Shown piece by piece: positions 21,894 through 58,382 of a stretch of DNA of 64,000 nucleotides. Below the pieces are notes generated by a model. The model had not been told where the DNA came from. It saw only the letters and a list, made by a program, of their open reading frames with translations, and did not search any database. Each line of letters begins with the position of its first letter. Position 1 is the first letter of the stretch. Both the position numbers and the translations under genes were made by a program. The DNA is from Eledone cirrhosa (lineage: Eukaryota), in assembly GCA_964016885.1 (NCBI GenBank), contig OZ024743.1, positions 341,310,001-341,374,000 on the forward strand, written 5' to 3'.

Positions 21894-23969
21894 ATGGCTA
21901 CGAAAAAGAATTTGCATAGGTCACTCCCACTCATTCCGTCTTCTTTTTCCTCAATCGTCACTACAGCAGAGAGAAGATTGTCTCTCTCCCTCCCTTCTCT
22001 TTCGCAAGCGACGAAAGAAAAGAAAAGTCTCGTGCAAAGCGTGCAAGGTTTCTCCACGACGACGACGACAGCGACGAAACAGGTGTGCGGGAAATACGAA
22101 AACCCAGTTCATTCGTCTGACGTCAGGAATAATAGCAGTAGCAGCCGTAATAACAACAGCAACAGTGACAATGAAAACAACAGTAGCAGCCGCAACAGCA
22201 TCACCAGCAGCATAAACAACAACAGCATTAGCAGCAGCAACACCAACAACAACCACAGCAACAGCGGCGGGGGCAGTAGTCGTAGTACCTGCAGCAACAA
22301 CAAAAGTAACAGCAGCTCTGACGACAACAACAGCAACAGCAGCAAAGAAAAACCAATCTCATTTGCAGGTATTGCGAAAAACTTGGAAACAATCCTCATA
22401 ACAAATGAGGAATTAGAGGAAGCGAAGAAGATGGTGACAAAGACTGGACACCGAGCAATCTGCAAGGCAGCGGAAACATTTTTCGAAACCCAACAGTACG
22501 GTCACGTACCGTACAGTAAGTACAAAATCCCGTAGGGTGGAAAGAGCCACAGAGGCTCAAATACAAAAAGCCTTGGGGTCTGTGTGGCAGCGGAAAACGC
22601 ACATCACCCGAGGAAAAAAAAATATGCCACCGTAGACGTACTTTTTGCCACACCCCAGGAGGCAAAGGCCCAATCCGTAGTGACCCTAAGGAGCGAGGAA
22701 ATGGTGTTGGTGCCCTCCTACTGCGGGCAAAAAATTGTGAGGGTCAAACTGACCCACGTCCCCCCCCCCCCCGGGATGGCCCCTTCTTGGCTGGCCGCGT
22801 CTGTCCTCGTCGGAATCGAGGACAAAACATCTGTACTGCAAGTACAGAAAAAAGTAAGAGAAGATTGGGTCGGCACCTCCATTGAGATGCTAATCCAAAC
22901 CAACCAGGAGTGCATCGAAGCTATCCCGGATGTGATAGACTTCGATAGCGGCACTCAACTTCCCATAAGTGTTGAAGGAAAACGCCCGAAATGCTTTCGC
23001 TGTGGATCGAAGACTCACCTCAGGGCCTTCTGCAACGAGAAGACCCTGAGAAAGGAGAAACCCCCCCTCCTTCCGAAACCGGCTCCACGGCTACCAGCAA
23101 CAGGACAAGCGGCAACCAGGAACGATAGGTCCGTGGCACCCATACCCACGCCACGGAAATCAAAAACAGCAGCAGCAGTGGAAATATTAACAACAACAAC
23201 AGCAATACCAAATGCAGCTGCAACAGAGACTCCAGTGCAAACATCACCAACAACAAGTGAAAGAGTGGAGCTGGTACCCCTCCCCGACCTCACAGAATCA
23301 GACATGGAGTGTGAGGTGGGAGAGAGATGGCAAAAGGTCGTAAGAAGGCACAAACGCAGAAGCAGCACATCGTCGCCTTTGAAAAGGGAGGAAAGAAATG
23401 AGAAAAGGGTAAAGTCTACTGCAAAGAGACCCACAGCAGCAACACCACCAACACCATCACCACCCATACTAGCACCACCATCACCACCGGCGACAACCCC
23501 ACCGCCAACAACACCTTCAACACCACCACCACAAGCACCAACATCGCAAACACAACAACAAAACACATACACCCAGCAACAACGACAAGAAAATAGCAGA
23601 ACCACACCCCACACCCAGAAAAACAAATGCACGGCAATAAATACACACAACAAGAAATTAATGACTTACATAATTGAACACACAGACATTTCACAACACG
23701 ACTACATAATACCAGCACCAATCAAAACGCCAACTAACATAAGACTGCTAAAAATAGCACAGAAACAATACACAAATAGTAAAACGAAATTCCCCAACGC
23801 AGTTGGTGATTTCAGGGACCTAGGAGGAACTATCAATCGAAGAATATATTCAGACATTCTCTTAGAAGAGCCAACGACCAGCCGAAGGGACGATTCAACG
23901 GTCCCTTCACCAGACGATCAAGTGAAAAGGGATGTAAAAACCATCCCTCCTCTACCAAAAGTACGGTAA
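21894..23969 (+). pseudogene. ORF1 (gag-like, CX2CX4HX4C zinc knuckle) disrupted near 22525-22620
   Basis: Contains CFRCGSKTHLRAFC. The TAG at 22533 is best explained by two compensating indels, because the alternative frame RVERATEAQIQKALGSVWQRK matches RVQQATVSQVQSAIVSVWAQRK of the 7.0-kb copy. Confidence 0.75.
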
Positions 23970-24004
23970 ATGGTCTTTCCCATCTTTTCCACTCTATTTT
24001 AAAC

Positions 24005-27000
24005 ATGACCTCACTCAGAACAGGCAGCATGAATGCGCGTGGCTTGGGGTCGTCATGGAAGCAGGGCCACCTGCTCAACGACCTCAGGTCACTAAACATA
24101 GATGTAGTGGCCATCAGCGAGACCAGAATCCCCGAAGCACGGGCCTTCGCACCGATCTTCGGCGGCTACGATGTGTACGCATCTCCCAGCCGTCCTGGAT
24201 CGGGGTGAGGAGTTGCTGTGCTTTTTCGGAGAGGTTTGGATCTCGCCATACGGGCCATCTTCCTGGACCCAGAAGGTAAGCTGGTGGTGCTGGACGTGAC
24301 CAGCGGAGACGGGCAAGCTTTCAGGCTAGTGGCCGTCTATGCCCCGACAGGAGCAGGGCGGCCTGATTTCTTCCGGCGTCTGGAGACCTTTCTTGGAACG
24401 TCCCGCTCTTTAGTGTTAGTGGGCGACTGGTACGGGATCTTAGATGCACGCTGGGACTGTGTGGGATTAGCGGATATGGGTGGAGGGTGCAAGAGCCTCA
24501 CCAACCTGCTCAGGCGTTTTGAACTGTCTGACAGGTACCGATTGGATTTCCCGAATGCGCCAATGTGGACTTGGACAAATCGCATAGGGTCATCCAGATC
24601 ATATCTAGATAGAGTATTTTGTAGGGAAATAGATAGGTCTAGCATAGGCTGTCCACAGTTCAAGATAGTCAGCTACACGGACCACAAATTCGTGATCTGT
24701 GTGCTTGCATTAGATAGGCTTCATAGACGAGGACCCGGCTACTGGAAGCTAAACGCGTCCTTACCAGCGCGCAAGGCCTACAGAGACCGGATTAGCGAAC
24801 TAGTTAAGCGGGCGTTGACGGGGGCCATCGTCAACAACAAGTGGTGGTTTGCTCTGAAAAGAGCGATTAGAATAGAATCCATTAGGTTTAGTAAGGCTTT
24901 AGCAATAGAGAAAAATAGAGCAGAGGGAGAACTAGTTAGAAAATTAGACGAGGCGCTTAGCAAAGGCATTGCGACTTACGTGCTTGCGGCGAAATTGGCC
25001 CTTGACCAATTCTTCAATGCAAAGCACGAATGCTGCGTTGTCAGAGCAAGGGTGCGTGCTCTCAGACACGAGGGGACGAAAGCCGTTCAATGGGCCCGAT
25101 TGGCGGAGGCGCATCGTGGCAACAAAGCCACGATCCGGTCTTTGGTGGACCACGACGGGCGCATGCTACTCGATCCCGGGCAAATGTGTGAAGCTTTTCA
25201 GCGACACTTTGCTCAGCTGTTCGGAGGCAGCGGTGGGCCGGGTCCAGGGATGGACTTTAGTGTCTACCTCGACGGACTGCCGCGGCTCTTGGCCACTGAT
25301 GCGAGGTGTTGCGAAAAGCCGATAACAGCCGCTGAAGTAAGGGAGGCAATGACTGGCTGCACAAGGGGTAAATCGCCTGGTTTGGATGGTCTGCTCTATG
25401 AACTTTACGTACAGATGCCAGACTTGTTCGGAGGCCTCTTGGCGGACGTCTACTGCAACTGGCAACAGAACGGGAAAATTCCCAGTTCTGTGAGCCGAGG
25501 AGCGGTGGCACTGCTGAGAAAGGATCCGAACAAGGGGGATAACATAGATAATTTCCGGCCCATAACTCTGCTAAACACAGAGTTCAAGATTTTGGCCAAG
25601 GTGCTAGCAAAGAGGTTGGCGCTTGTCGTTGGTGGTCTGGTGGGAGAGGCGCAGACATGCGCCATTCCCGACAGATCCATCCACGACAACCTCCACCTCA
25701 TGCGATACATCGTAGAGAGGGTAGCTAAGGAACCTGGCACGGGTGGGTCCTTGATCAATTTAGATCAGTCGAAAGATTTCGATAGGGTCGACCATCGTTA
25801 CCTAGCGGCAGTCCTGAGGGCGGCTGGCTTTGGGCCCGTCTTCAGAGGCTGGATCGCTGCCATGCACAGCGACATCTGCTCTGTGGTGAGAGTGAACGGT
25901 CACCTGTCGGAACCGTTCAACATCATGCGCTCGGTCCGCCAAGGATGTCCCCTCTCGTCCCTCTTGTACGTATTGACTCTCGAGCCATTACTGCACAAAC
26001 TGGAGACGTTGAGGGGGGTCCCGCGCGAATTAGGATGCGGAAGATCCGTGTCAGCATATGCGGACGATGTCACCGTAGTGGTGTCGAACGCCAAACACAT
26101 CGAGGCGATCGGCACTACATTAAGAGAATACGAAGCGGTGACAGGAGCAATGATCAACCAGGAAAAGTCAGTGGGCCTGCAGCTCGGCACCTGGAGAGGC
26201 AGGTCCATGTCGTCCAACAGCGTCGTCGGACGCTGGACGGACGGACCGGTTAAATTGCTAGGGGTCTGGTTCGGTCTGGACCTCCAGACGGACAAAAACT
26301 GGGACGAGGTGACGAGCAGGGTGGCTTCTCTCACCCAGAAATGGGCCCAGAGGAAGCTATCCCTGAAAGGTCGAGCGGAGGTGGCTAACACGTACATCGC
26401 GTCTGTCATCTGCTACCGCCTGACCGTCGTACCTTGTCCTAAGCCTCGCCTGACTGCGCTGGAGCGTTTGCTCTTTCGCTTTTTGTGGAAGGGACGCGCT
26501 CCGATGGTCAGGCGATCCATCTGTTGTCAACACCCGCTACGTGGAGGGCTGGGCGGGCCGTGGCTGATGATGCGCAGGCACGCGCTCAGGCTACGAGATC
26601 TCCACCTCTTCCTCGACAGTGATCAGGTGTGGTCGCCGTTTGCTAGACACGTATTTCCTCAGCTCGTTTCCTTGACGGAGCTGCAGTCCTGGGTCAAGCG
26701 AAGACCGAGAGGGAGCGCCTGGAGACTGGAATGTCTTCAGGCGCTCACAGCCCTCGACCAATCGGGCAATGTGATCGGTCTAAACTCCACCTCGGCGTTC
26801 TATAGAGGATTAGTGAAAGGGAAGAGCGACGACGTACTTGGGGAAACTCTAGGCGTCGACGAAAATCAACTAGCCAATCTCTTCGGAAGAACTTTCGGGC
26901 CTGGGCCTATGGACAACTTCCAGAAATCTCTGGCCTGGCAGTGCTACCGAGGAGCCTTGCCAGTTCGGGATAAACTCTACAGGCATGGAGGTGCCGTCAG

Positions 27001-27424
27001 CCGGGCATGTCCGAGATGCGCACAGGGCGACGAAACCGTCCTGCACGCACTCGTCCAGTGTCCGAAAATTGCTGACTTGTGGGTTTATGTCGAACACCTG
27101 CTATCGCGTTTAGGACGGATCCGGCTATCATCTGAGTCCATCGTGAGGATTGCCCCGCCCTCCTCCTTTAGCCGGGAAGGGCAGGCAGTTTTTATCTGTC
27201 AGGTGGCCATGGCGAAAGAGATAGTATGGTGGACACGTTTGAAAGGGCTGAAGACGAGCACTTACCTCTTCGGTGATGCTGTGATTGACTTTTTCAAATT
27301 TCATTTGAAAAGGAAAATCAGAGTAGAGAGGGAAGTGCTCTCTTCCCAGCATTTTGTTGAAAGATGGGTGAGAGAAGCAAGAATGGCCCGAGTGAATGGG
27401 CCTATTCTGAGTATATATCTGTAA
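24005..27424 (+). CDS. ORF2: APE endonuclease + reverse transcriptase + C-terminal zinc finger, with one in-frame TGA at 24206
   Basis: Motifs MNARGL, VVAISET, VYAP, SYLDR, YTDHK, KSPGLDG, FRPITLLN, VRQGCPLS, YADD and CPRC..ETVLHALVQC. ORFs 24005-24208 and 24218-27424 are in the same frame. Confidence 0.92.
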
Positions 27425-32040: not shown

Positions 32041-32069
32041 AGGAGGAAGAGCAGAGTGTGCGTACCACT

Positions 32070-33145
32070 ATTGTGTGTACCGCTAAAGTGTGTACCGCTA
32101 AAGTATGTACCGCTACAGTGTGAACCGCTAAAGTGTGTACCGCCAAAGTATGTACCTTTAAAGTGTGTACCGCCAAAGTATGTACTCCTAAAGTGTGTAC
32201 CACCAAAATATGTACCGCTAAAGTGTGTACCGCCAAAGTATGTACCGCTCGCTAATGTATGTACCGCTAAAGTGTGTACCACCAAAGTATGTACCGCTAA
32301 AGTGTGTACCACCAAAGTATGTACCCCTAAAGTGTGTACCGCCAAAATATGTACCGCTAAAGTGTGTAGCGGTAAAGTGTGTACCGCCAAAGTATGTACC
32401 GCTAAAATATGTACAGCTAAAGTGTGTACCGCCAAAGTATGTATCGCTAACGTGTGTACCGCCAAAGTATGTACCGCTAAAGTATGTACCGCTAAAGTGT
32501 GTACCGCCAGAGTATGTACTGCTAAAGTGTGTAACGCCAAAGTATGTACCGCTAAAGTGTGTACCGCCAAAGTATGTATCGCTAAAGTGTGTACCGCCAA
32601 AGTATGTACCGCTAAAGTGTGGACCGCCAAAGTATTACCGCTAAAGTATGTACCGCTACAGTGTTTACCGCAAAAGTGTGTGCCGCCAAAGTATGTACCG
32701 CTAAAGTCTGTACGGCCAAAGTATGTACCGTTAAAGTGTGTACCGCTAAAGTGTGTACCACCAAAGTATGTACCGCTAAAGTGTGTACCGCCAAAGTATG
32801 TACCGCTAAAGTGTGTACCGTCAAAATATGTACCGCCAAAGTGGGTACCGCCAAAGTATGTACCGCCACAGTATGTACCGCTAAAGTGTGAACCGCCAAA
32901 GTATGTACCGCCAAAGTATGTACCGCCAAAGTGTGTACCGCCAAAGTATGTACCGCCAAAGTATGTACCGCCAAAGTGTGTACCGCCAAAGTATGTACCG
33001 CCAAAGTATGTACCGCCAAAGTGTGTACCGCCAAAGTGTGTAACGCCAAAGTATGTACCGCCAAAGTGTGTACCGCCAAAGTGTGTAACGCCAAAGTATG
33101 TACCGCCAAAGTATGTACGGCTACAGTGTGTACCGCTACAGTCCG
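32070..33145. repeat. 15-bp minisatellite aaagt(g/a)tgtaccgc(c/t), about 70 copies, partly with 30-bp higher-order alternation
   Basis: The tandem periodicity is directly visible. Confidence 0.97.
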
Positions 33146-49862: not shown

Positions 49863-50180
49863 TTAAGTTGTTAAACAATATTCGATGATTATGTCAAATC
49901 CAGATGGATATTACTAGCTACTATTCTTCTATAACACTTAAACTTCTAAATAAGGCCCTCTGATATGCTTATAAGCATACCGATCTAACCACAAATGAAA
50001 TAGATATAATTTTAACAGCTAGAAGAACTCTCATTAACTTCAATAACGAACTTTGGACACGCTCAGATAGAGATAGAAACTTTGATATCACTATGGGGGC
50101 ATCTGATTCCGCGCAAATCACAGATCTTCTGGGAGTTTTCATATTAAACATGATAAATAGGAAACTGCCGGAGATTACCA

Positions 50181-51362
50181 GTGGTTTATGATGAGATTTT
50201 ATTTACGGTGGTCAAACACAATAATATAGAATTAAAAAGAGTTAAGAAAAGTATAATAGAATTCTTTAAAACGTACGACCTCAAATTAGAAGTAGAAAAT
50301 GGTACCAAAATAGTTAATTTCCTTGACGTTACCTTCACCTTAAACACTGGCTTCTATTACCCTTTTCATAAGCCTAATGAACACTTAAGCTATGTTAGTA
50401 ACTATTCAAATCACCCTAGATCTGCAAAAAACGCTATAGTAAATAGTGTGCAAAAACGTATTAATAAAATATCAGCTAATAAAGATATATTTGATAAAAA
50501 TGCGAAATATTACAACAACGCGTTAAAAAGAGCAGGATATATGAATAATATAGAATATGTAGATAATAACAATCCAAGTATTATTCCTAATAATAATAAT
50601 AAAAATTATAACACATATAAGAGTAACTCTAATGACTATAACTCAAACACACATACGCTAAATAAATCGAGAATACGAACTAGATCTAAACCAGTCATAT
50701 GGTTTGCACCCCCAGCTTCGGCCGCACTTAAAACACCAATTGCAAAACTATTCTTTAAAGCTCTTGACACCTCTTTCTCTACTCAACATAAATACCATTC
50801 CATTTTTAATAGACATACCATTAAATTCGCAAATTCTACAACCAGTAACATGGCCCAAATCATCGCCAAATTACACGCCAAAATCCTAAAACCAAACCAA
50901 CATAATGATAATAATAATAGAGTTAACATTAATGATACTAAACCAAATTGTAATTGTAGAAATAAAAGTAATTGCCCTTTGCAAAATAATTGTTTAGATA
51001 GTAATTTGGTTTATAAATGCACCGTAAAAACTGACCATAAGACATACAATTACATTGGATCAACCTCGTCCACATTCAAACTTCGTTTCGCGAACCATAA
51101 ATGCTCATTCTCGAACTCTAAGAAGAAATCATCCACGTCTTTATCACAGCTCACATGGTCTTTAAAAGAGAAGAATCTGGAATACTCCATTCTTTGGACA
51201 AAACTTCGGAACTGTGGAATTTACCGCAACTCTAGTATTTCAAATAACTGCCCGCTCTGTACAATGGAAACCCTGTTTATTATTAATAATTATGAGACCC
51301 TAATTAACAAAAAAAGTGAATTATTCTCTAATTGCCTCCGTAAAGCTCTGTCCACTTTTTGA
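50181..51362 (+). CDS. Penelope-like ORF fragment: RT thumb, Cys-rich linker and GIY-YIG endonuclease
   Basis: Motifs VNFLDVTF, YHKP-like FHKPN, SNHP, VIWFAPP, CNCRNKSNCPLQNNCL..NLVYKC, YIGSTSSTFKLRFANHKCSF and CPLCTME. Confidence 0.92.
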   Translation: MVYDEILFTVVKHNNIELKRVKKSIIEFFKTYDLKLEVENGTKIVNFLDVTFTLNTGFYYPFHKPNEHLSYVSNYSNHPRSAKNAIVNSVQKRINKISANKDIFDKNAKYYNNALKRAGYMNNIEYVDNNNPSIIPNNNNKNYNTYKSNSNDYNSNTHTLNKSRIRTRSKPVIWFAPPASAALKTPIAKLFFKALDTSFSTQHKYHSIFNRHTIKFANSTTSNMAQIIAKLHAKILKPNQHNDNNNRVNINDTKPNCNCRNKSNCPLQNNCLDSNLVYKCTVKTDHKTYNYIGSTSSTFKLRFANHKCSFSNSKKKSSTSLSQLTWSLKEKNLEYSILWTKLRNCGIYRNSSISNNCPLCTMETLFIINNYETLINKKSELFSNCLRKALSTF

Positions 51363-52969
51363 GTCTCACATAAAACGAGAAAGAAAGAACCAATAACAAC
51401 TCGGTTACCAGTAATATATAATCAACAGTAAAAAAACATCAATGGCCTTTAATATTGCTTTATTTTATAAATATGTATAGAAAAAACAACGTTAGAATGA
51501 ATGACAATATTTCAATTAGCATGCCTAAACATTGATACACACAACTTTATTTGTTAACTTTGATAAACACCATCATTTATCTATAATTTAGTACAATACC
51601 TAATCCTTACATATCTATTGAATTTATTTAACTGTGAATTTTTAATACATTTGTAATCTCTTTTAAATTTTAGTTTTAATACCCAATGCAAAAAAATTTT
51701 ACGAAACTTATCTATAACTCCAAATGTTTAATGACTTTTTGATCTATTATTTGTAGTATAATATAGCATATATTTCTTTTAAATATACTTACTGCACTAT
51801 AAAATCTAAATTTGAGACGGATTCAAACTTATATATAAATGTGAACTTTTCACTGTACTTTCGATCTCTTATTTATTTATTTATTTATTTATAATATAAT
51901 GTATTATAATATATATGTAGTTATATATTGTATTTTATATATTTTTAAATATTTTTAAATATACCTACCATACTTCTATATACATAATTCAAATATAAAG
52001 AAAATATCCAAACTAAAAATTATTATAGACATTATTTTGAACTTTATACATGCATTCATTGTTCGTTTTTCTTATATGTATATATATATATATTTAAATG
52101 TGACACGTTGTTAAGATTCTAATGTTATCATTTACCTAATGTATAATACAATAATAATACCTAATATATATCTATATATATACATCACTATATCTAATAA
52201 TATGTTGATGTCTTGCATGAAGAATAATTACTACATTTACACCCAATTATACATATGTATAAAATTTATCCGTAACATATTATTTTATTTTATTTTTATC
52301 TTCGTTGGTATTATTTACCTTAAACATACTGACTCATTAATATATACCTATATACATAATAGTTATTCAAATATTTATAACAATAATTACTTCAAAAGCT
52401 TTACATACCTAATATGTTGGGATATTTGTTAAAGTTTAGATTTAGGTAATTAATCAACAGTATAATATTTTATTCTTTATGTGCCAGCTAAATCCTTTAA
52501 AATGTTATTCTCACAATTCAGAAGTTTAGAAATGATAACACACTTATCGAATTTATATAAATAATATATAAATAAATAGCAAATAATCCTGAAATCTGGA
52601 GTCTTCACATTAATATTATAAATTAAATATTTCCAAATCTAACCGTTTAACTTACGACCCCCCCCCCACACACACACACTTTATCTTTCCTTCCTTATAA
52701 ATCTGTTTCCTGTGGCTATCACTGGCTGTTATGATTCATGTGACGTTTCCCTAGATATATTGTAGTATCATAAAATTTAAAATTTTAGAACACTTTCAGT
52801 ATGCAACGTTTTTTCTTACTCACACATTCTCTAATGAATTCATTACGTTTTCGCACTTTCACACAGATATTATATAAGTACAATTTTCTATCGGGTAATC
52901 ACTACCTTGATTAAATCTTAACCATTTAACATCTCAGGGTAGGTCTATATCATTATATTTCAGGGTATC

Positions 52970-53032
52970 ATTATATTTTGTCTGATGAGGACGTACTGTT
53001 GTACATCCGAAATATGTATAATAAAATATAAT
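52970..53032 (+). ncRNA. Type I hammerhead ribozyme at the 3' end (pLTR) of the Penelope element
   Basis: attatattttgt CTGATGA ggacgtac tgtt gtacatcc GAAA tatgta TA ataaaatataat; 12-bp stem I and 7/8-bp stem II. Confidence 0.82.
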
Positions 53033-53192
53033 TGATCAAAAGAACATCTATTGTATTAATACTTATATTTTAATAAGTTGTAATAAAATGAAAACGAAAT
53101 TTCATTTCTCACTCTTGGTACGGCACTTACTTAAATGTAAGTATGTGTGTATACGTACATACATATATGTATACAGACGTACAGTAGCATGC

Positions 53193-53225
<33 letters not shown>

Positions 53226-53377
53226 CAGGTACACATACATATATGCACGCATCAGCTTAGCGGACGCTTATTATAACGCCGCTTTGTTCGTTTGTAAACA
53301 AACTGAACAGCCTGAATTGTTATGCCGTACGGTGTTAAGACAACCACGTCACCTTTTTGTTCAACACTGACACAGGA

Positions 53378-53420
53378 ACGATGTACTAGTTTCAAGCTTG
53401 TTAGCTATCATCAGCACCGT
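53378..53420 (-). ncRNA. Minimal type I hammerhead ribozyme (array copy 1)
   Basis: Minus strand reads acggtg CTGATGA t agct aaca agct t GAAA ctag TA catcgt. Confidence 0.82.
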
Positions 53421-53834
53421 ATACCCATCTGCCAGATAGTTGAACGTTCGAAATTATATACTTTCCTTATGAAAATTAACGGCTGAGCAGCCTAATTTGC
53501 ATATCGAGTGAGATCGGTCAGGCGTACCGAGAACGATAAGTTGTAATAAAATGAAAATGAAATTTCATTTCTCACTCTTAGTACGGCACTTACTTAAATG
53601 TAAGTATGTGTGTGTACGTAAATACATATATGTATACAGACGTACAATAGCATGCATATATATATATATATATATATACATACAGGTACACATACATATA
53701 TGCACGCATCAGCTTAGCGGACGCTTATTATAACGCCGCTTTGTTCGTTTGTAAACAAACTGAACAGCCTCAATTTTTATGCCGTACGGTGTTAAGGCAA
53801 CCACGTCACCTTTTTGTTCAACACTGACACAGGA

Positions 53835-53877
53835 ACGATGTACTAGTTTCAAGCTTGTTAGCTATCATCAGCACCGT
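53835..53877 (-). ncRNA. Minimal type I hammerhead ribozyme (array copy 2)
   Basis: Identical to copy 1, 457 bp away. Confidence 0.82.
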
Positions 53878-54109
53878 ATACCCATCTGCCAGATAGTTGA
53901 ACGTTCGAAAGTATATACTTTCCTTATGAAAATTAACGGCTGAGCAGCCTAATTTGCATATCGAGTGAGTTCGGTCAGGCGTACCGAGAACGATAAGTTG
54001 TAATAAAATGAAAACGAAATTTCGTTCCTCACTCTTAGTACGGCACTTACTTAAATATAAGTATGTGTGTATACGTACATACATATATGTATACAGACGT
54101 ACAGTAGCA

Positions 54110-54158
<49 letters not shown>

Positions 54159-54392
54159 GCTACTGTACGTCTGTATACATATATGTATGTATGTATACAT
54201 ACATACTTACATTTAAGTAAGTGCCGTACTAAGAGTGAGAAATGAAATTTCGTTTCATCATATTCCAACTTATCGTTTTCGGTGCGCCTGGCCGACTGAA
54301 CTCACTCGATATGCAAATTAGGCTGCTCAGCCGTTAATTTTCATAAGGAAAGTATATACTTTCGAACGTTCAACTATCTGGCAGGCGGGTAT

Positions 54393-54435
54393 ACGGTGCT
54401 GATGATAGCTAACAAGCTTGAAACTAGTACATCGT
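54393..54435 (+). ncRNA. Minimal type I hammerhead ribozyme (array copy 3)
   Basis: acggtgCTGATGAtagctaacaagcttGAAActagTAcatcgt. Confidence 0.82.
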
Positions 54436-54872
54436 TCCTGTGTCAGTGTTGAACACAAAGGTGACGTGGTTGCCTTAACACCGTACGGCATAAAAATTGA
54501 GGCTGTTCAGTTTGTTTACAAACGAACAAAGCGGCGTTATAATAAGCGTCCGCTAAGCTGATGCGTGCATATATGTATGTGTACCTGTATGTATATATAT
54601 ATATTATATATATATAATATATATATATATATATGCATGCTACTGTACGTCTGTATACATATATGTATGTACGTATACACACATACTTACATTTAAGTAA
54701 GTGCCGCCGTACTAAGAGTGAGAAATGAAATTTCGTTTTCATTTTATTACAACTTATCTTCCTCGGTACGCCTGACTGAACTCACTCGATATGCAAATTA
54801 GGCTGCTCAGCCGTTAATTTTCATAAGGAAAGTATATACTTTCGAACGTTCAACTATCTGGCAGATGGGTAT

Positions 54873-54915
54873 ACGGTGCTGATGATAGCTAACATGCTTG
54901 AAACTAGTACATCGT
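54873..54915 (+). ncRNA. Minimal type I hammerhead ribozyme (array copy 4, one stem II substitution)
   Basis: As copy 3 but with aacatgctt; 480 bp downstream. Confidence 0.78.
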
Positions 54916-55705
54916 TCCTGTGTCAGTGTTGATCAAAAAGGTGACGTGGTTGCCTTAACACCGTACGGCATAAAAATTCAGGCTGTTCAGTTTGTTTACA
55001 AACGAACAAAGCGGCGTTATAATAAGCGTCTGCTAAGCTGATGCCTGCATATATGTATGTGTACCTGTATGTATATGTATATGCATGCTACTGTACGTCT
55101 GTATAGATATATGTATGTACGTATACACACATACTTACATATATTTTAATATATATATATATATATATATATTCATGTGTGTTTGGATATATTAGGCCTT
55201 TCCTGTACACTCACCCACGTACTATGTAATAACAGTATCTTCTGTTCTTAGTGCAATTAGATTTTAACCGTAATATATATCATTCTGACGAGAGACAGTA
55301 GCTAAAATTAGTATGTTAAACAGTAGGATATGAGGTAACAAAACTGGTCTACGTCGGAAATTAATGTGTACAAAAAGTTCAAATGTGAATATATTGGTTT
55401 GACCGTGGAAAACAACTGTCTAAATTTGAAGGCACACAATCTTTGGCAATGAGAATGATGCACGACATCGTTGATTAGCAAAATTGGCGCAAATCTGTGG
55501 GATTCACAAGATTGCTTTGCTTTGCAGCCAATTGGTCGCAAACCTATGCCTACTATGCGGTATATTTTGTCAATATCCATTTTAAATAGAATGTGAAGGC
55601 TGGATGTATGTAGATGTCCATTTTACACACGCACACAAACACACACACACACAAATACTCACCCATACACTCAAACACGCACCGAAAAAGATGGAGCAAA
55701 CATAA

Positions 55706-55890
55706 TAATTGTTTCTACTTTTGGCACATGGCCAGTAATTATCTCAGTGTATTACTGGTACTTTATTTTATCGACCCTGTAAGGATGAAAGGCAAAGTGA
55801 ACCTCTGCAGGATTTGAACTCAGAATGGCAAAGGCCGTAACTATGCGTCAAAGCATGGCGTCCGACCCTCTACCGATACTGCCAATCCAA
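55706..55890 (-). mobile_element. tRNA-derived SINE
   Basis: Reverse-complement copy. Confidence 0.85.
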
Positions 55891-55978
55891 TACAAGACAA
55901 AAGAGAAGGCACAGAAGTAGGATATAGTCGTTGATGAAGTCACGGTGTGTGTGTGACGAACTTTGATAATTACGTAAG

Positions 55979-56015
<37 letters not shown>

Positions 56016-56032
56016 CCAGTGTCTGTGTTTGT

Positions 56033-56091
<59 letters not shown>

Positions 56092-56369
56092 CTATTATAT
56101 TTCTGAGTTGATTTTCGTTTACCTTTCGCACGCACGCACACACACACGCACATATATATATATATATGTATGTATATATATATATATATATACTCTTCTA
56201 CGGCCTCGATATGAATACCCCCTCCGCCTCCGTGGTATTTTCTTCGTGGTTATAAGAGGCTTAGCTCTGTTTCTCGACCGTTATATCGCGTGACTATCTC
56301 CCCCTCCGCCTTTTTGGGATTCTTTCTCACGTCGTGTGGACGCGTTCTTGAGACTAGTAAAATGAGGTA

Positions 56370-56457
56370 TCCTCTTGATAAGTCGGCAGACCTCGCAGGG
56401 ACTCTATATCTTTGATATATTGTTTTTGTTTATGCCACGAAACTACGTAGTCGAGGA
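56370..56457 (+). ncRNA. Type I hammerhead with U3-A8 compensatory core and long stem II
   Basis: tcctc TTGATAA gt(c)ggca...tgccac GAAA ctacgtag TC gagga. Confidence 0.75.
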
Positions 56458-56961
56458 ATTTAGGAGCAGTTTAGGTATGATACATTTTATTACTAATTAT
56501 ATCTAAATGTTTCTTCTCTCTTCATAATGTATTTTTAACTCTGATACTGGTTCAGTCTGGTTCAAACTGAATTGGTCTGTCCCAGTCATTCATTGAGCAA
56601 CATCGGTGAAGTTGGCACCCTTAACTCACAGTTGGGTGCGGATGCATTCATGTATATATGTGTGTGTCCGCATGTATCTGTGTGTTCCTAAATATATTAA
56701 TAACTCCCTCTGGTCGAGCAATCTTTGAAGTGTGGGGACAACTGGAAAGCTTCCATTACTCATACTTCACGCCTTCTTCACTACCTCTTCTACGGCCTCG
56801 ATATGAATACCCCCTCCGCCTCCGTGGTATTTTCTTCGTGGTTATAAGAGGCTTAGCTCTGTTTCTCGACCGTTATATCGCGTGACTATCTCCCCCTCCG
56901 CCTTTTTGGGATTCTTTCTCACGTCGTGTGGACGCGTTCTTGAGACTAGTAAAATGAGGTA

Positions 56962-57049
56962 TCCTCTTGATAAGTCGGCAGACCTCGCAGGGACTCTATA
57001 TCTTTGATATATTGTTTTTGTTTATGCCACGAAACTACGTAGTCGAGGA
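56962..57049 (+). ncRNA. Second copy of the U3-A8 hammerhead
   Basis: Identical sequence 592 bp downstream. Confidence 0.75.
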
Positions 57050-57961
57050 ATTTAGGAGCAGTTTAGGTATGATACATTTTATTACTAATTATATCTAAAT
57101 GTTTCTTCTCTCTTCATAATGTATTTTTAACTCTGATACTGGTTCAGTCTGGTTCAAACTGAATTGGTCTGTCCCAGTCATTCATTGAGCAACATCGGTG
57201 AAGTTGGCACCCTTAACTCGCAGTTGGGTGCGGATGCATTCATGTATATATGTGTGTGTCCGCATGTATCTGTGTGTTCCTAAATATATTAATAACTCCC
57301 TCTGGTCGAGCAATCTTTGAAGTGTGGGGACAACTGGAAAGCTTCCATTACTCATACTTCACGCCTTCTTCACTACCTCTTCTACGGCCTCGATATGAAT
57401 ACCCCCTCCGCCTCCGTGGTATTTTCTTCGTGGTTATAAGAGGCTTAGCTCTGTTTCTCGATCCAATTACCATCAAATGTTGTTAAACATTGGGATTGAA
57501 AGTTATACTACTAAGAAAGAAAAAAACACACACGCCTCAGTGGAGTTTCACTATTTATTATTAGTCACGTTAGTTTAGTAACCGGCTGGTAATTTAATTT
57601 TCAAAGGCCTTTTGTAATGTATTATCTGGTTATAAATAATTAGGCACTATGTTTCCCCATTTCGTTTCGATTTTCTTCTAGTTGCACCATTATCTTGAGT
57701 TGTGTATATTTACATTGTTCCTTATTCTCTCTATTCCATTCTAGCCTGTATTCCTTTGATCAAAGCAAGTCCGATTTATATTGTTTTCCATGATAGTTTT
57801 CGATTTCGCCTCGATATTTTGTATACTCTGAACCCTGCCCTTTCTTTGCATGCAGATAATTGCACGCGGGAGCTGTTCCTTCTCGCCCTTACAAGTTTCA
57901 GTATTAGAATATTGATATTTATGTTATCTTATATATATGTATATATACACACACACACACA

Positions 57962-57998
<37 letters not shown>

Positions 57999-58196
57999 TC
58001 ATATGCGTTGTGTGTGTATGTGTGTATGCGTGTCAACGTCCACAATATTTTAGCAGTCACACTATGCTTTCAATCTTGTAAAAGCCACAGATATCAAGTC
58101 ACATATTACGCCAGCTGATTCCAATTGTGCAATCCAAAAGAGATTTTCTTACTTTATCGCATGAAGTGCTTGAAATAAAAGTAAAATATCTCGCAA

Positions 58197-58382
58197 ATAA
58201 TTGTTTCTACTTTTGGCACAAGGCCAGCAATTACCCAGTACATTACTGGTACTTTATTTTATCGAACCCGTAAGGATGAAAGGCAAAGTTAACCTCGGCG
58301 GGATTTGAACACAGACCGTAAAGGGACGTAACTATGCTGGAAAGCATGGCGTCCGACTCTCTACTGATACTGCCAATCCACT
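58197..58382 (-). mobile_element. tRNA-derived SINE
   Basis: Reverse-complement copy. Confidence 0.85.

Follow-up and report, generated by a model that had tools for sequence, protein, structure and literature searches.

A multi-thousand-copy non-LTR retrozyme with a U3-A8 hammerhead in Eledone cirrhosa and its likely mobilisation by a Hydra-like Penelope element

The stretch of Eledone cirrhosa DNA analysed here (the window; 64,000 nucleotides of contig OZ024743.1, positions 341,310,001–341,374,000) carries a tandem array on the + strand at window positions 56193–57461, and the question that it raises is whether the array is a local duplication or one copy of a mobile family and, in the second case, by what means such a family moves. 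The array has exact edges and a period of 592, which gives 1269/592 = 2.14 units (56193–56784, 56785–57376 and a partial unit at 57377–57461), and its units differ by a single mismatch (56628 A versus 57220 G). When period, edges and mismatch were recomputed, they agreed exactly with a sequence-only reading of this stretch, which had described 2.14 near-identical 592-bp units with one substitution. The same reading had taken the array for a probably recent duplication; instead, it is one insertion of a dispersed genome-wide family. In our view, this family is a non-coding, multi-thousand-copy non-LTR retrozyme, the RNA of which likely cleaves itself through its U3-A8 hammerhead and probably owes its insertion into (TA)n to a Hydra-like Penelope element, and we give this reading as a whole a probability of roughly 0.7.

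A search of the 3.0-Gb genome revealed unit matches at 97–99% on many chromosome-scale contigs. The 22-mer spanning the cut site has 7,531 exact genome occurrences (0 for the reversed control), and the complete motif UUGAUAAG...CGAAACUACGUAGUH is present in 7,148 genome copies. The array region has about 38% GC, and no stop-to-stop frame of more than 89 aa starts inside the array, the longer frames entering from the flanking microsatellite. This microsatellite, an unstranded (TA)n tract on the 5' flank (56152–56192), is the preferred target of the family. The type I hammerhead is found in at least two consecutive tandem units, the copies are non-coding and dispersed, and the arrays are bounded by (TA)n and show no LTR arrangement. 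The feature is a non-LTR retrozyme, a known kind of element, with an already published core variant. In the literature, no description of this particular family was found, and the species lists in the supplements of PMC7229834 and of a 2026 preprint could include one.

Non-LTR retrozymes of animals have been described with units of 150–450 bp, with demonstrated circles and with Penelope-like elements proposed as their mobilisers (Cervera and de la Pena, 2020; PMC7229834). Recently, units of 51–972 bp were given in a preprint that describes the mobilisation mechanism as still to be worked out (Li, Clavereau and Pollet, 2026; bioRxiv 10.64898/2026.07.22.740005). A unit of 592 nt, which had been called long for an animal retrozyme, is long by the first range and lies within the second. 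The octopus family shares with the retrozymes of these two sources the non-coding, low-GC tandem units with one type I hammerhead each, the thousands of dispersed dimers to multimers, a strongly self-paired monomer and the presence of Penelope-like elements in the genome. It differs from them in the U3-A8 core, the 57-nt stem II with a candidate pseudoknot, the two fixed 3' ends into (TA)n, the frequent inversions, and a short end motif common with the candidate partner in place of pseudo-LTR homology; moreover, it is known here from genomic DNA.

Each full unit holds a type I hammerhead for which self-cleavage after C17 is predicted, and the claim of such a ribozyme in a retrozyme-type unit is supported. 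The order along the unit is UCCUC, UUGAUAA, a 57-nt stem II, GAAA, CUACGUAG, UC, the cut and GAGGA. In the predicted copy 1 (56363–56457, + strand), the 5' strand of stem I, UCCUC (56370–56374), pairs with GAGGA (56453–56457) and is followed by the core U3 U4 G5 A6 U7 A8 A9 (56375–56381, with U3 at 56375 and A8 at 56380). Stem II (56382–56438) comprises the pair G10.1-C11.1, a bulge, an internal loop with ACCUCG (56390–56395) and a distal helix, and the last block (56439–56452) is formed by G12 A13 A14, the palindromic stem III ACUACGUAGU (56442–56451) and C17 at 56452. Thus the core boxes of a type I hammerhead (UUGAUAA, GAAA and UC, with a Watson-Crick 3-8 pair) are present, with an open-ended stem I of 5 bp, a G-C closing pair in stem II, and a stem III of 3 bp, or of 10 bp as a dimer. 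Copy 2 (56955–57049, core at 56967–56973) is identical to copy 1. The layout and the cuts predicted after 56452 and 57044 agree with those proposed earlier, and they would release a 592-nt monomer or circle (56453–57044, + strand; also given as about 591 nt) with an MFE of −177.6 kcal/mol (z −5.3) and a fold that is kept between subfamilies. A gcaccc/gggtgc hairpin that had been listed as well is absent from the MFE fold and not retained in the older subfamily; the perfect palindrome of stem III had been overlooked.

A degenerate hammerhead scan of the window gave three matches, the two U3-A8 sites and one canonical site at 52982. Since a loose descriptor already yields a mean of 0.45 matches per window in 40 Markov-resampled 64-kb windows, the motif alone is weak evidence, and the case for the hammerhead rests on conservation. 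Rfam gives no hammerhead at the array at gathering score, nor at E<=10 among 150 of the 158 matches listed for 52800–57600. As Rfam is silent there, standard searches overlook the U3-A8 motif, which bears out the earlier expectation that searches for CUGAnGA would do so.

The U3-A8 pair is present in 40 of 40 young units and in 20 of 22 old ones, the remaining two being gaps. It had been said that free variation at positions 3 and 8 would speak against a selected pair, and none is seen: a pattern for the 5' half that allows any base at positions 3, 7 and 8 has 6,090 matches, among which 11 are non-U3 (all keeping A8, none C3-G8) and 15 are non-A8 (all keeping U3). These singletons look like mutations after insertion, and the pattern is biased towards young copies, so that they do not count in support of selection. 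Among 40 of the 45 matches listed from four sequencing runs of unrecorded kind, no difference was found at core positions 3 or 8. A gapped genome search with a spacer of 35–65 nt found no C3-G8 relative, and no short-stem-II or C3-G8 variant of the U3-A8 hammerhead was found genome-wide. Nine short-spacer matches considered as C3-G8 relatives were rejected as family variants or chance by their matched strings (four of the nine were read in context). The argument from the compensatory double change accordingly stands in part: the motif is conserved across subfamilies 25% apart, but the covariation itself is unseen, and because no C3-G8 relative was found, the case for selection is one of invariance and not of a double change within the family.

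The U3-A8 core by itself is not new, and its supposed rarity was overstated. It is a natural, though uncommon, variant with earlier in vitro activity (Perreault, 2011; PMC3088659, section 8), and about 1,300 U3-A8 matches are reported from Schistosoma Penelope-like elements (PMC4209133). The Schistosoma motifs, in Cercyon elements, show the same compensatory 3-8 change and are likewise animal and Penelope-linked; however, they are described there as heterogeneous and mostly single, whereas those of the present family are full-sized, homogeneous, tandem and fixed across subfamilies 25% apart. In a tobacco-ringspot-type hammerhead, the G3-C8 swap alone rescued activity and U3-A8 did not (PMC9901934), and of nine predicted Xenopus retrozyme dimers eight stayed uncleaved in vitro and one was cleaved (bioRxiv 10.64898/2026.07.22.740005).

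What selection has kept was read from two subfamilies, a young one and an older one, by comparing the majority letters of 40 distinct young and 22 old full units over 604 columns, 150 of which differ (25%). The two longest difference-free runs of the unit are the two ribozyme halves (56361–56388, 28 nt, and 56434–56457, 24 nt). None of the 35 ribozyme columns differs between the subfamilies (hypergeometric P 3e-5; 3 of 603 circular shifts equal this), these columns being the hammerhead structure, picked after the difference map had been seen. The distal helix of stem II has compensatory changes that retain pairing (G.U to A-U, C-G to U.G and U-A to C-G), whereas 15 of the 22 old units have an A.A mismatch at the basal stem II pair 56388–56433. 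By these sequence comparisons the ribozyme looks selected. In the fold of the window unit alone, the + strand has 116 pairs with p >0.9, of which 70 are unchanged, 32 changed with pairing kept, 13 broken and one gapped. Under the null, the averages are 18.6 pairs kept and 28.2 broken, and none of 5,000 shuffles did as well as the observed counts; on the minus strand, 4 of 36 such pairs are kept through change and 9 broken, in raw counts without a null. Because the fold is conserved on the + strand, the + strand RNA is the selected molecule. In old genomic copies, the ribozyme decays as fast as the rest of the unit (7.6% versus 5.0%); selection acts on the replicating lineage, and single genomic copies decay neutrally. 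A motif search for a deeper third subfamily recovered three loci, all of the known older one, and a metagenome scan gave one match, which had no stem I and was judged to be chance.

A candidate pseudoknot may add to the ribozyme. The strand UGAGGU (56363–56368, + strand), which a single base separates from the 5' side of stem I, could pair over 6 bp with the ACCUCG of the stem II internal loop, with a duplex energy of −6.9 kcal/mol. Five of the six pairs do not vary, and the remaining one reads U-A in the older subfamily and U.G in the young one; the invariance of 11 of the 12 columns is alone not significant (P about 0.16, binomial, 25% background), and no two-sided covariation is found in it between the two subfamilies. 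The GAGG of the same strand can alternatively pair with CCUC (56371–56374) of stem I, as GAGG-UAU-CCUC. In nested folding in context, this inhibitory hairpin has p 0.96, GAGGA is paired downstream at 0.73 and stem I is near 0, so that the ground state predicted in the nested fold is inactive; ViennaRNA scores nested structures, the pseudoknot being outside its scoring. When a two-unit transcript is folded, pairing of the palindromic stem III of one unit with that of the other has a probability of about 0.59. From these models we infer a possible switch, in which pseudoknot and dimer would turn the ribozyme on and the hairpin with the downstream pairing would turn it off. Animal type I hammerheads are known to depend on dimers (PMC4209133, PMC6765202), and pseudoknots are common in hammerheads of all three types, where they are needed for speed (PMC3088659). 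In the account of PMC3088659, about 40% of representatives, across all three types and including the human C10 ribozyme, are stabilised in this way, and the likeness lies in a helix of 5–6 bp from the stem I side to stem II. In contrast to these, the predicted partner strand here sits in an internal loop within a long stem II, and the GAGG that would pair with it may also form an inhibitory hairpin with stem I.

The way in which the units enter the genome was read from the ends of 44 arrays, which comprise the best matches and hand-picked places and are not a random sample. Of 64 3' ends, 60 fall at two sites, 34 at site A (unit positions 334–345) and 26 at site B (503–513), and 52 of these 60 pass directly into TA. 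The 5' ends are scattered (59 ends at 51 places), and inverted arms occur in 21 of the 44 arrays. The older subfamily uses the same two sites, with 38 of 53 listed ends at two exact positions. In the window, site A lies at 56526–56541 (+ strand; ends at about 56532, followed by TAACTC; copy 2 at 57118–57133) and site B, ATATTAATAACTCC, at 56694–56707 (+ strand; copy 2 at 57286–57299); a third TAACTC of the unit, which no TA run precedes, is unused as a 3' end. Ends that seemed to recur at unit positions 542 and 50 proved to be edges of the search window, four such loci continuing past them. In the Penelope architecture, 3' ends are fixed, 5' truncation is variable, 5' arms are inverted and targets are microsatellites (PMC8557442), and the insertion pattern of the retrozyme family matches such Penelope-type mobilisation.

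The array in the window departs from this pattern on one side. It has TA on its 5' side, and its 3' end, at unit position 85, is one of the 4 atypical ends among the 64; its 3' flank has no match in any other fetched locus, and a later deletion is possible. A short dispersed repeat with two copies (87–95% alike; 55704–55889 and 58196–58380) flanks the array at a distance, and similar sequence also adjoins other insertions (L013, L006 and L031). Elsewhere, the window contains a LINE-type element (22536–27424) with an open frame of 1,071 aa (endonuclease, RVT_1 and zf-RVT) and, upstream of it, a 477-aa frame without Pfam match, another zf-RVT fragment (705–1499) and a 15-bp minisatellite of 72 copies (32058–33142).

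Sites A and B lie 80 and 245 nt downstream of the predicted cut, and since the 3' ends are downstream of it, the template must have had an intact junction, as in a religated circle or an uncut multimer. Among 132 segments of 32 arrays, units of the same arm diverge by 0.60%, those of mutually inverted arms by 0.68% and those of different arrays by 1.73%; of the array-private variants, 31 occur in every covering unit, 15 of them across both arms, and 144 do not. This homogeneity fits one template read repeatedly, and copying from a multimeric transcript fits it too. A rival account can thus keep the same Penelope-mobilised family and let it move as a linear multimeric read-through transcript, for which the circle is unneeded and the ribozyme is slow or only trims RNA ends. 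It draws on the start of reverse transcription downstream of the cut site and its passage across, which require an intact junction in the template, on the inactive ground state of the folding model, on the poor in vitro cleavage of Penelope hammerheads (PMC4209133) and on arrays (L139, L044 and L016) that carry variants in only two or three units. However, 5' truncation in each round would shorten the arrays, and yet arrays of at least five units are young and common, and a catalytic motif that is invariant over its whole length implies that cleavage is important; we consider this account unlikely.

Junction reads cannot show a circle, because the identical junction is present in tandem DNA. 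Runs X4 and X5, with two other organism codes, each gave a one-unit contig (621 and 620 nt) at a depth of about 8 with 5 differences from the window, for which trace DNA, tandem DNA and a circle cannot be told apart. In run X6 (kind unrecorded), one depth-2 contig at 57157–57222 has nine listed A>G changes, and another contig has three T>C changes at 56831–56839, all absent from the deep run X1. The A>G changes are only a hint of A-to-I hyper-editing of double-stranded transcripts from inverted arrays, at a depth too low to count.

Upstream of the array, and not part of it, the window carries a 5'-truncated Penelope-like element (49864–53072, + strand; ORF remnant 50157–51362) as a candidate mobiliser. 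It has CxCX5C and GIY-YIG motifs, a 3' UTR of about 1.7 kb and, some 55 nt before its end, the canonical hammerhead with its core at 52982, and its family is abundant (59,198 first-look candidates genome-wide). In translations, the protein shows an RT-like region, a C-terminal GIY-YIG, a CxCX5C linker, and CxxC and CxH, with no CCHH; Pfam and PDB gave no match, and the ESM Atlas placed it among RT/GIY-YIG clusters. CxCX5C, CxxC/CxH, no CCHH, (TA)n targeting and a hammerhead are the marks of the Hydra clade (Craig, 2021; PMC8557442, section 11). The retrozyme shares with that clade the (TA)n targeting, the partial tandems and the inverted 5'-truncated arms, and the candidate partner likewise has the hammerhead near its 3' end, CxCX5C and CxxC/CxH and lacks CCHH. 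Unlike the clade, the retrozyme itself encodes no protein, and the partner, which was assigned by motifs and not by a tree, exceeds 3.2 kb (usually <3 kb), has LWK for RWK and shows no DKT in the fragments.

The link between the two is the end sequence. At 10 loci, the Penelope-like element ends into TA in six and runs through ATATTAATAACTCC into the next repeat in four. The 14-mer ATATTAATAACTCC is common to site B and to this 3' boundary, where it is identical, and a match of 14 arises somewhere in one of 300 shuffled units. The end signal is not shared throughout, most old units reading TAGCTC at site A. Taken together, the Hydra-like Penelope element is the likely mobiliser of the retrozyme family, judged by these motifs and ends. 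A neighbouring ribozyme family adjoins the 3' end of the element at 53072. It occupies 53073–55143, with units of 457–480 bp that are unrelated to the 592-bp unit, inverted arms, TA boundaries, a CUGAUGA hammerhead at about 54381–54453 with a weak Rfam HH9 match, and 1,979 first-look candidates genome-wide. Its end, ATACTTACAT, is similar to the second half of the Penelope end, the one other than TAACTC, and contains no TAACTC.

Comparison of the unit with 40 loci of one Penelope-like family revealed no homology of at least 60 nt, the short end motif being all that is common. The unit could instead descend from the pseudo-LTR of some other autonomous Penelope family, not yet found, which would be its true partner, and the 14-mer would then be a clade-wide end signal. 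Such an origin is the model of the 2026 preprint, in which, of 57 Xenopus families, 24 matched a known element, almost always a Penelope-like one (bioRxiv 10.64898/2026.07.22.740005), and U3-A8 cores do occur in schistosome Penelope repeats (PMC4209133); the partner comparison covered one Penelope family. Against this, the genome-wide searches found no short-stem-II or C3-G8 variant of the hammerhead, and the mapped insertions are unit sequence between TA runs (the flanks were not scanned for ORFs), and we regard the derivation as improbable. That a dead or chance look-alike sits in a satellite spreading by DNA-level amplification, for which one could cite the resampled background of 0.45 and the silence of Rfam, is barely credible, because the 28- and 24-nt invariant blocks coincide exactly with the two halves of the ribozyme, only one strand has a conserved fold, and the copies are spread over many chromosome-scale contigs, their 3' ends being fixed and their 5' ends scattered.

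For the retrozyme mobilised by a Hydra-like Penelope element, the following life cycle can be proposed. The tandem array would be transcribed on the + strand, the strand to which structure conservation points, and the hammerheads would cut after C17 to give a monomer of about 591–592 nt, probably helped by the pairing of palindromic stems III between neighbouring units and by the UGAGGU:ACCUCR pseudoknot. Ligation of the monomer may then give a circle, the alternative fold of which would hide stem I and keep the junction intact, as PMC7229834 and the folding suggest. The Penelope endonuclease, the presumed enzyme, would nick (TA)n, and the reverse transcriptase would prime at site A or B and copy across the junction over lengths that vary, in many cases from both strands, which is how the observed end pattern could arise. 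A more specific form of this proposal, which we offer tentatively and consider rather doubtful, is a circular RNA parasite that uses the Hydra-clade Penelope enzyme purely via 3'-end mimicry (a TA primer site, then TARCTC), carries this signal twice per circle, and has a throttled ribozyme, a U3-A8 core in which the GAGG strand alternates between the activating pseudoknot and the inhibitory hairpin, so that multimers are cut but the circle is spared for rolling-circle reverse transcription. If it were true, a cis signal would identify the mobiliser of a retrozyme, in place of co-occurrence or descent from a pseudo-LTR.

What is new here is the mapped priming ends, the end motif common with a Hydra-like Penelope element and the candidate pseudoknot switch. 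A ribozyme family of about 7,000 copies can escape CUGAnGA and Rfam searches, and the U3-A8 family is a natural test of whether such a core needs a strong tertiary contact. A 2007 paper cited in PMC3884650, going by its title, reportedly holds that tolerance depends on surrounding elements. The mobiliser of animal retrozymes has so far been argued from co-occurrence and sequence kinship (PMC7229834; bioRxiv 10.64898/2026.07.22.740005). For the present family, the priming ends have been mapped, the target is known and a candidate enzyme with a common end sequence can be named, so that a reconstitution test is straightforward.
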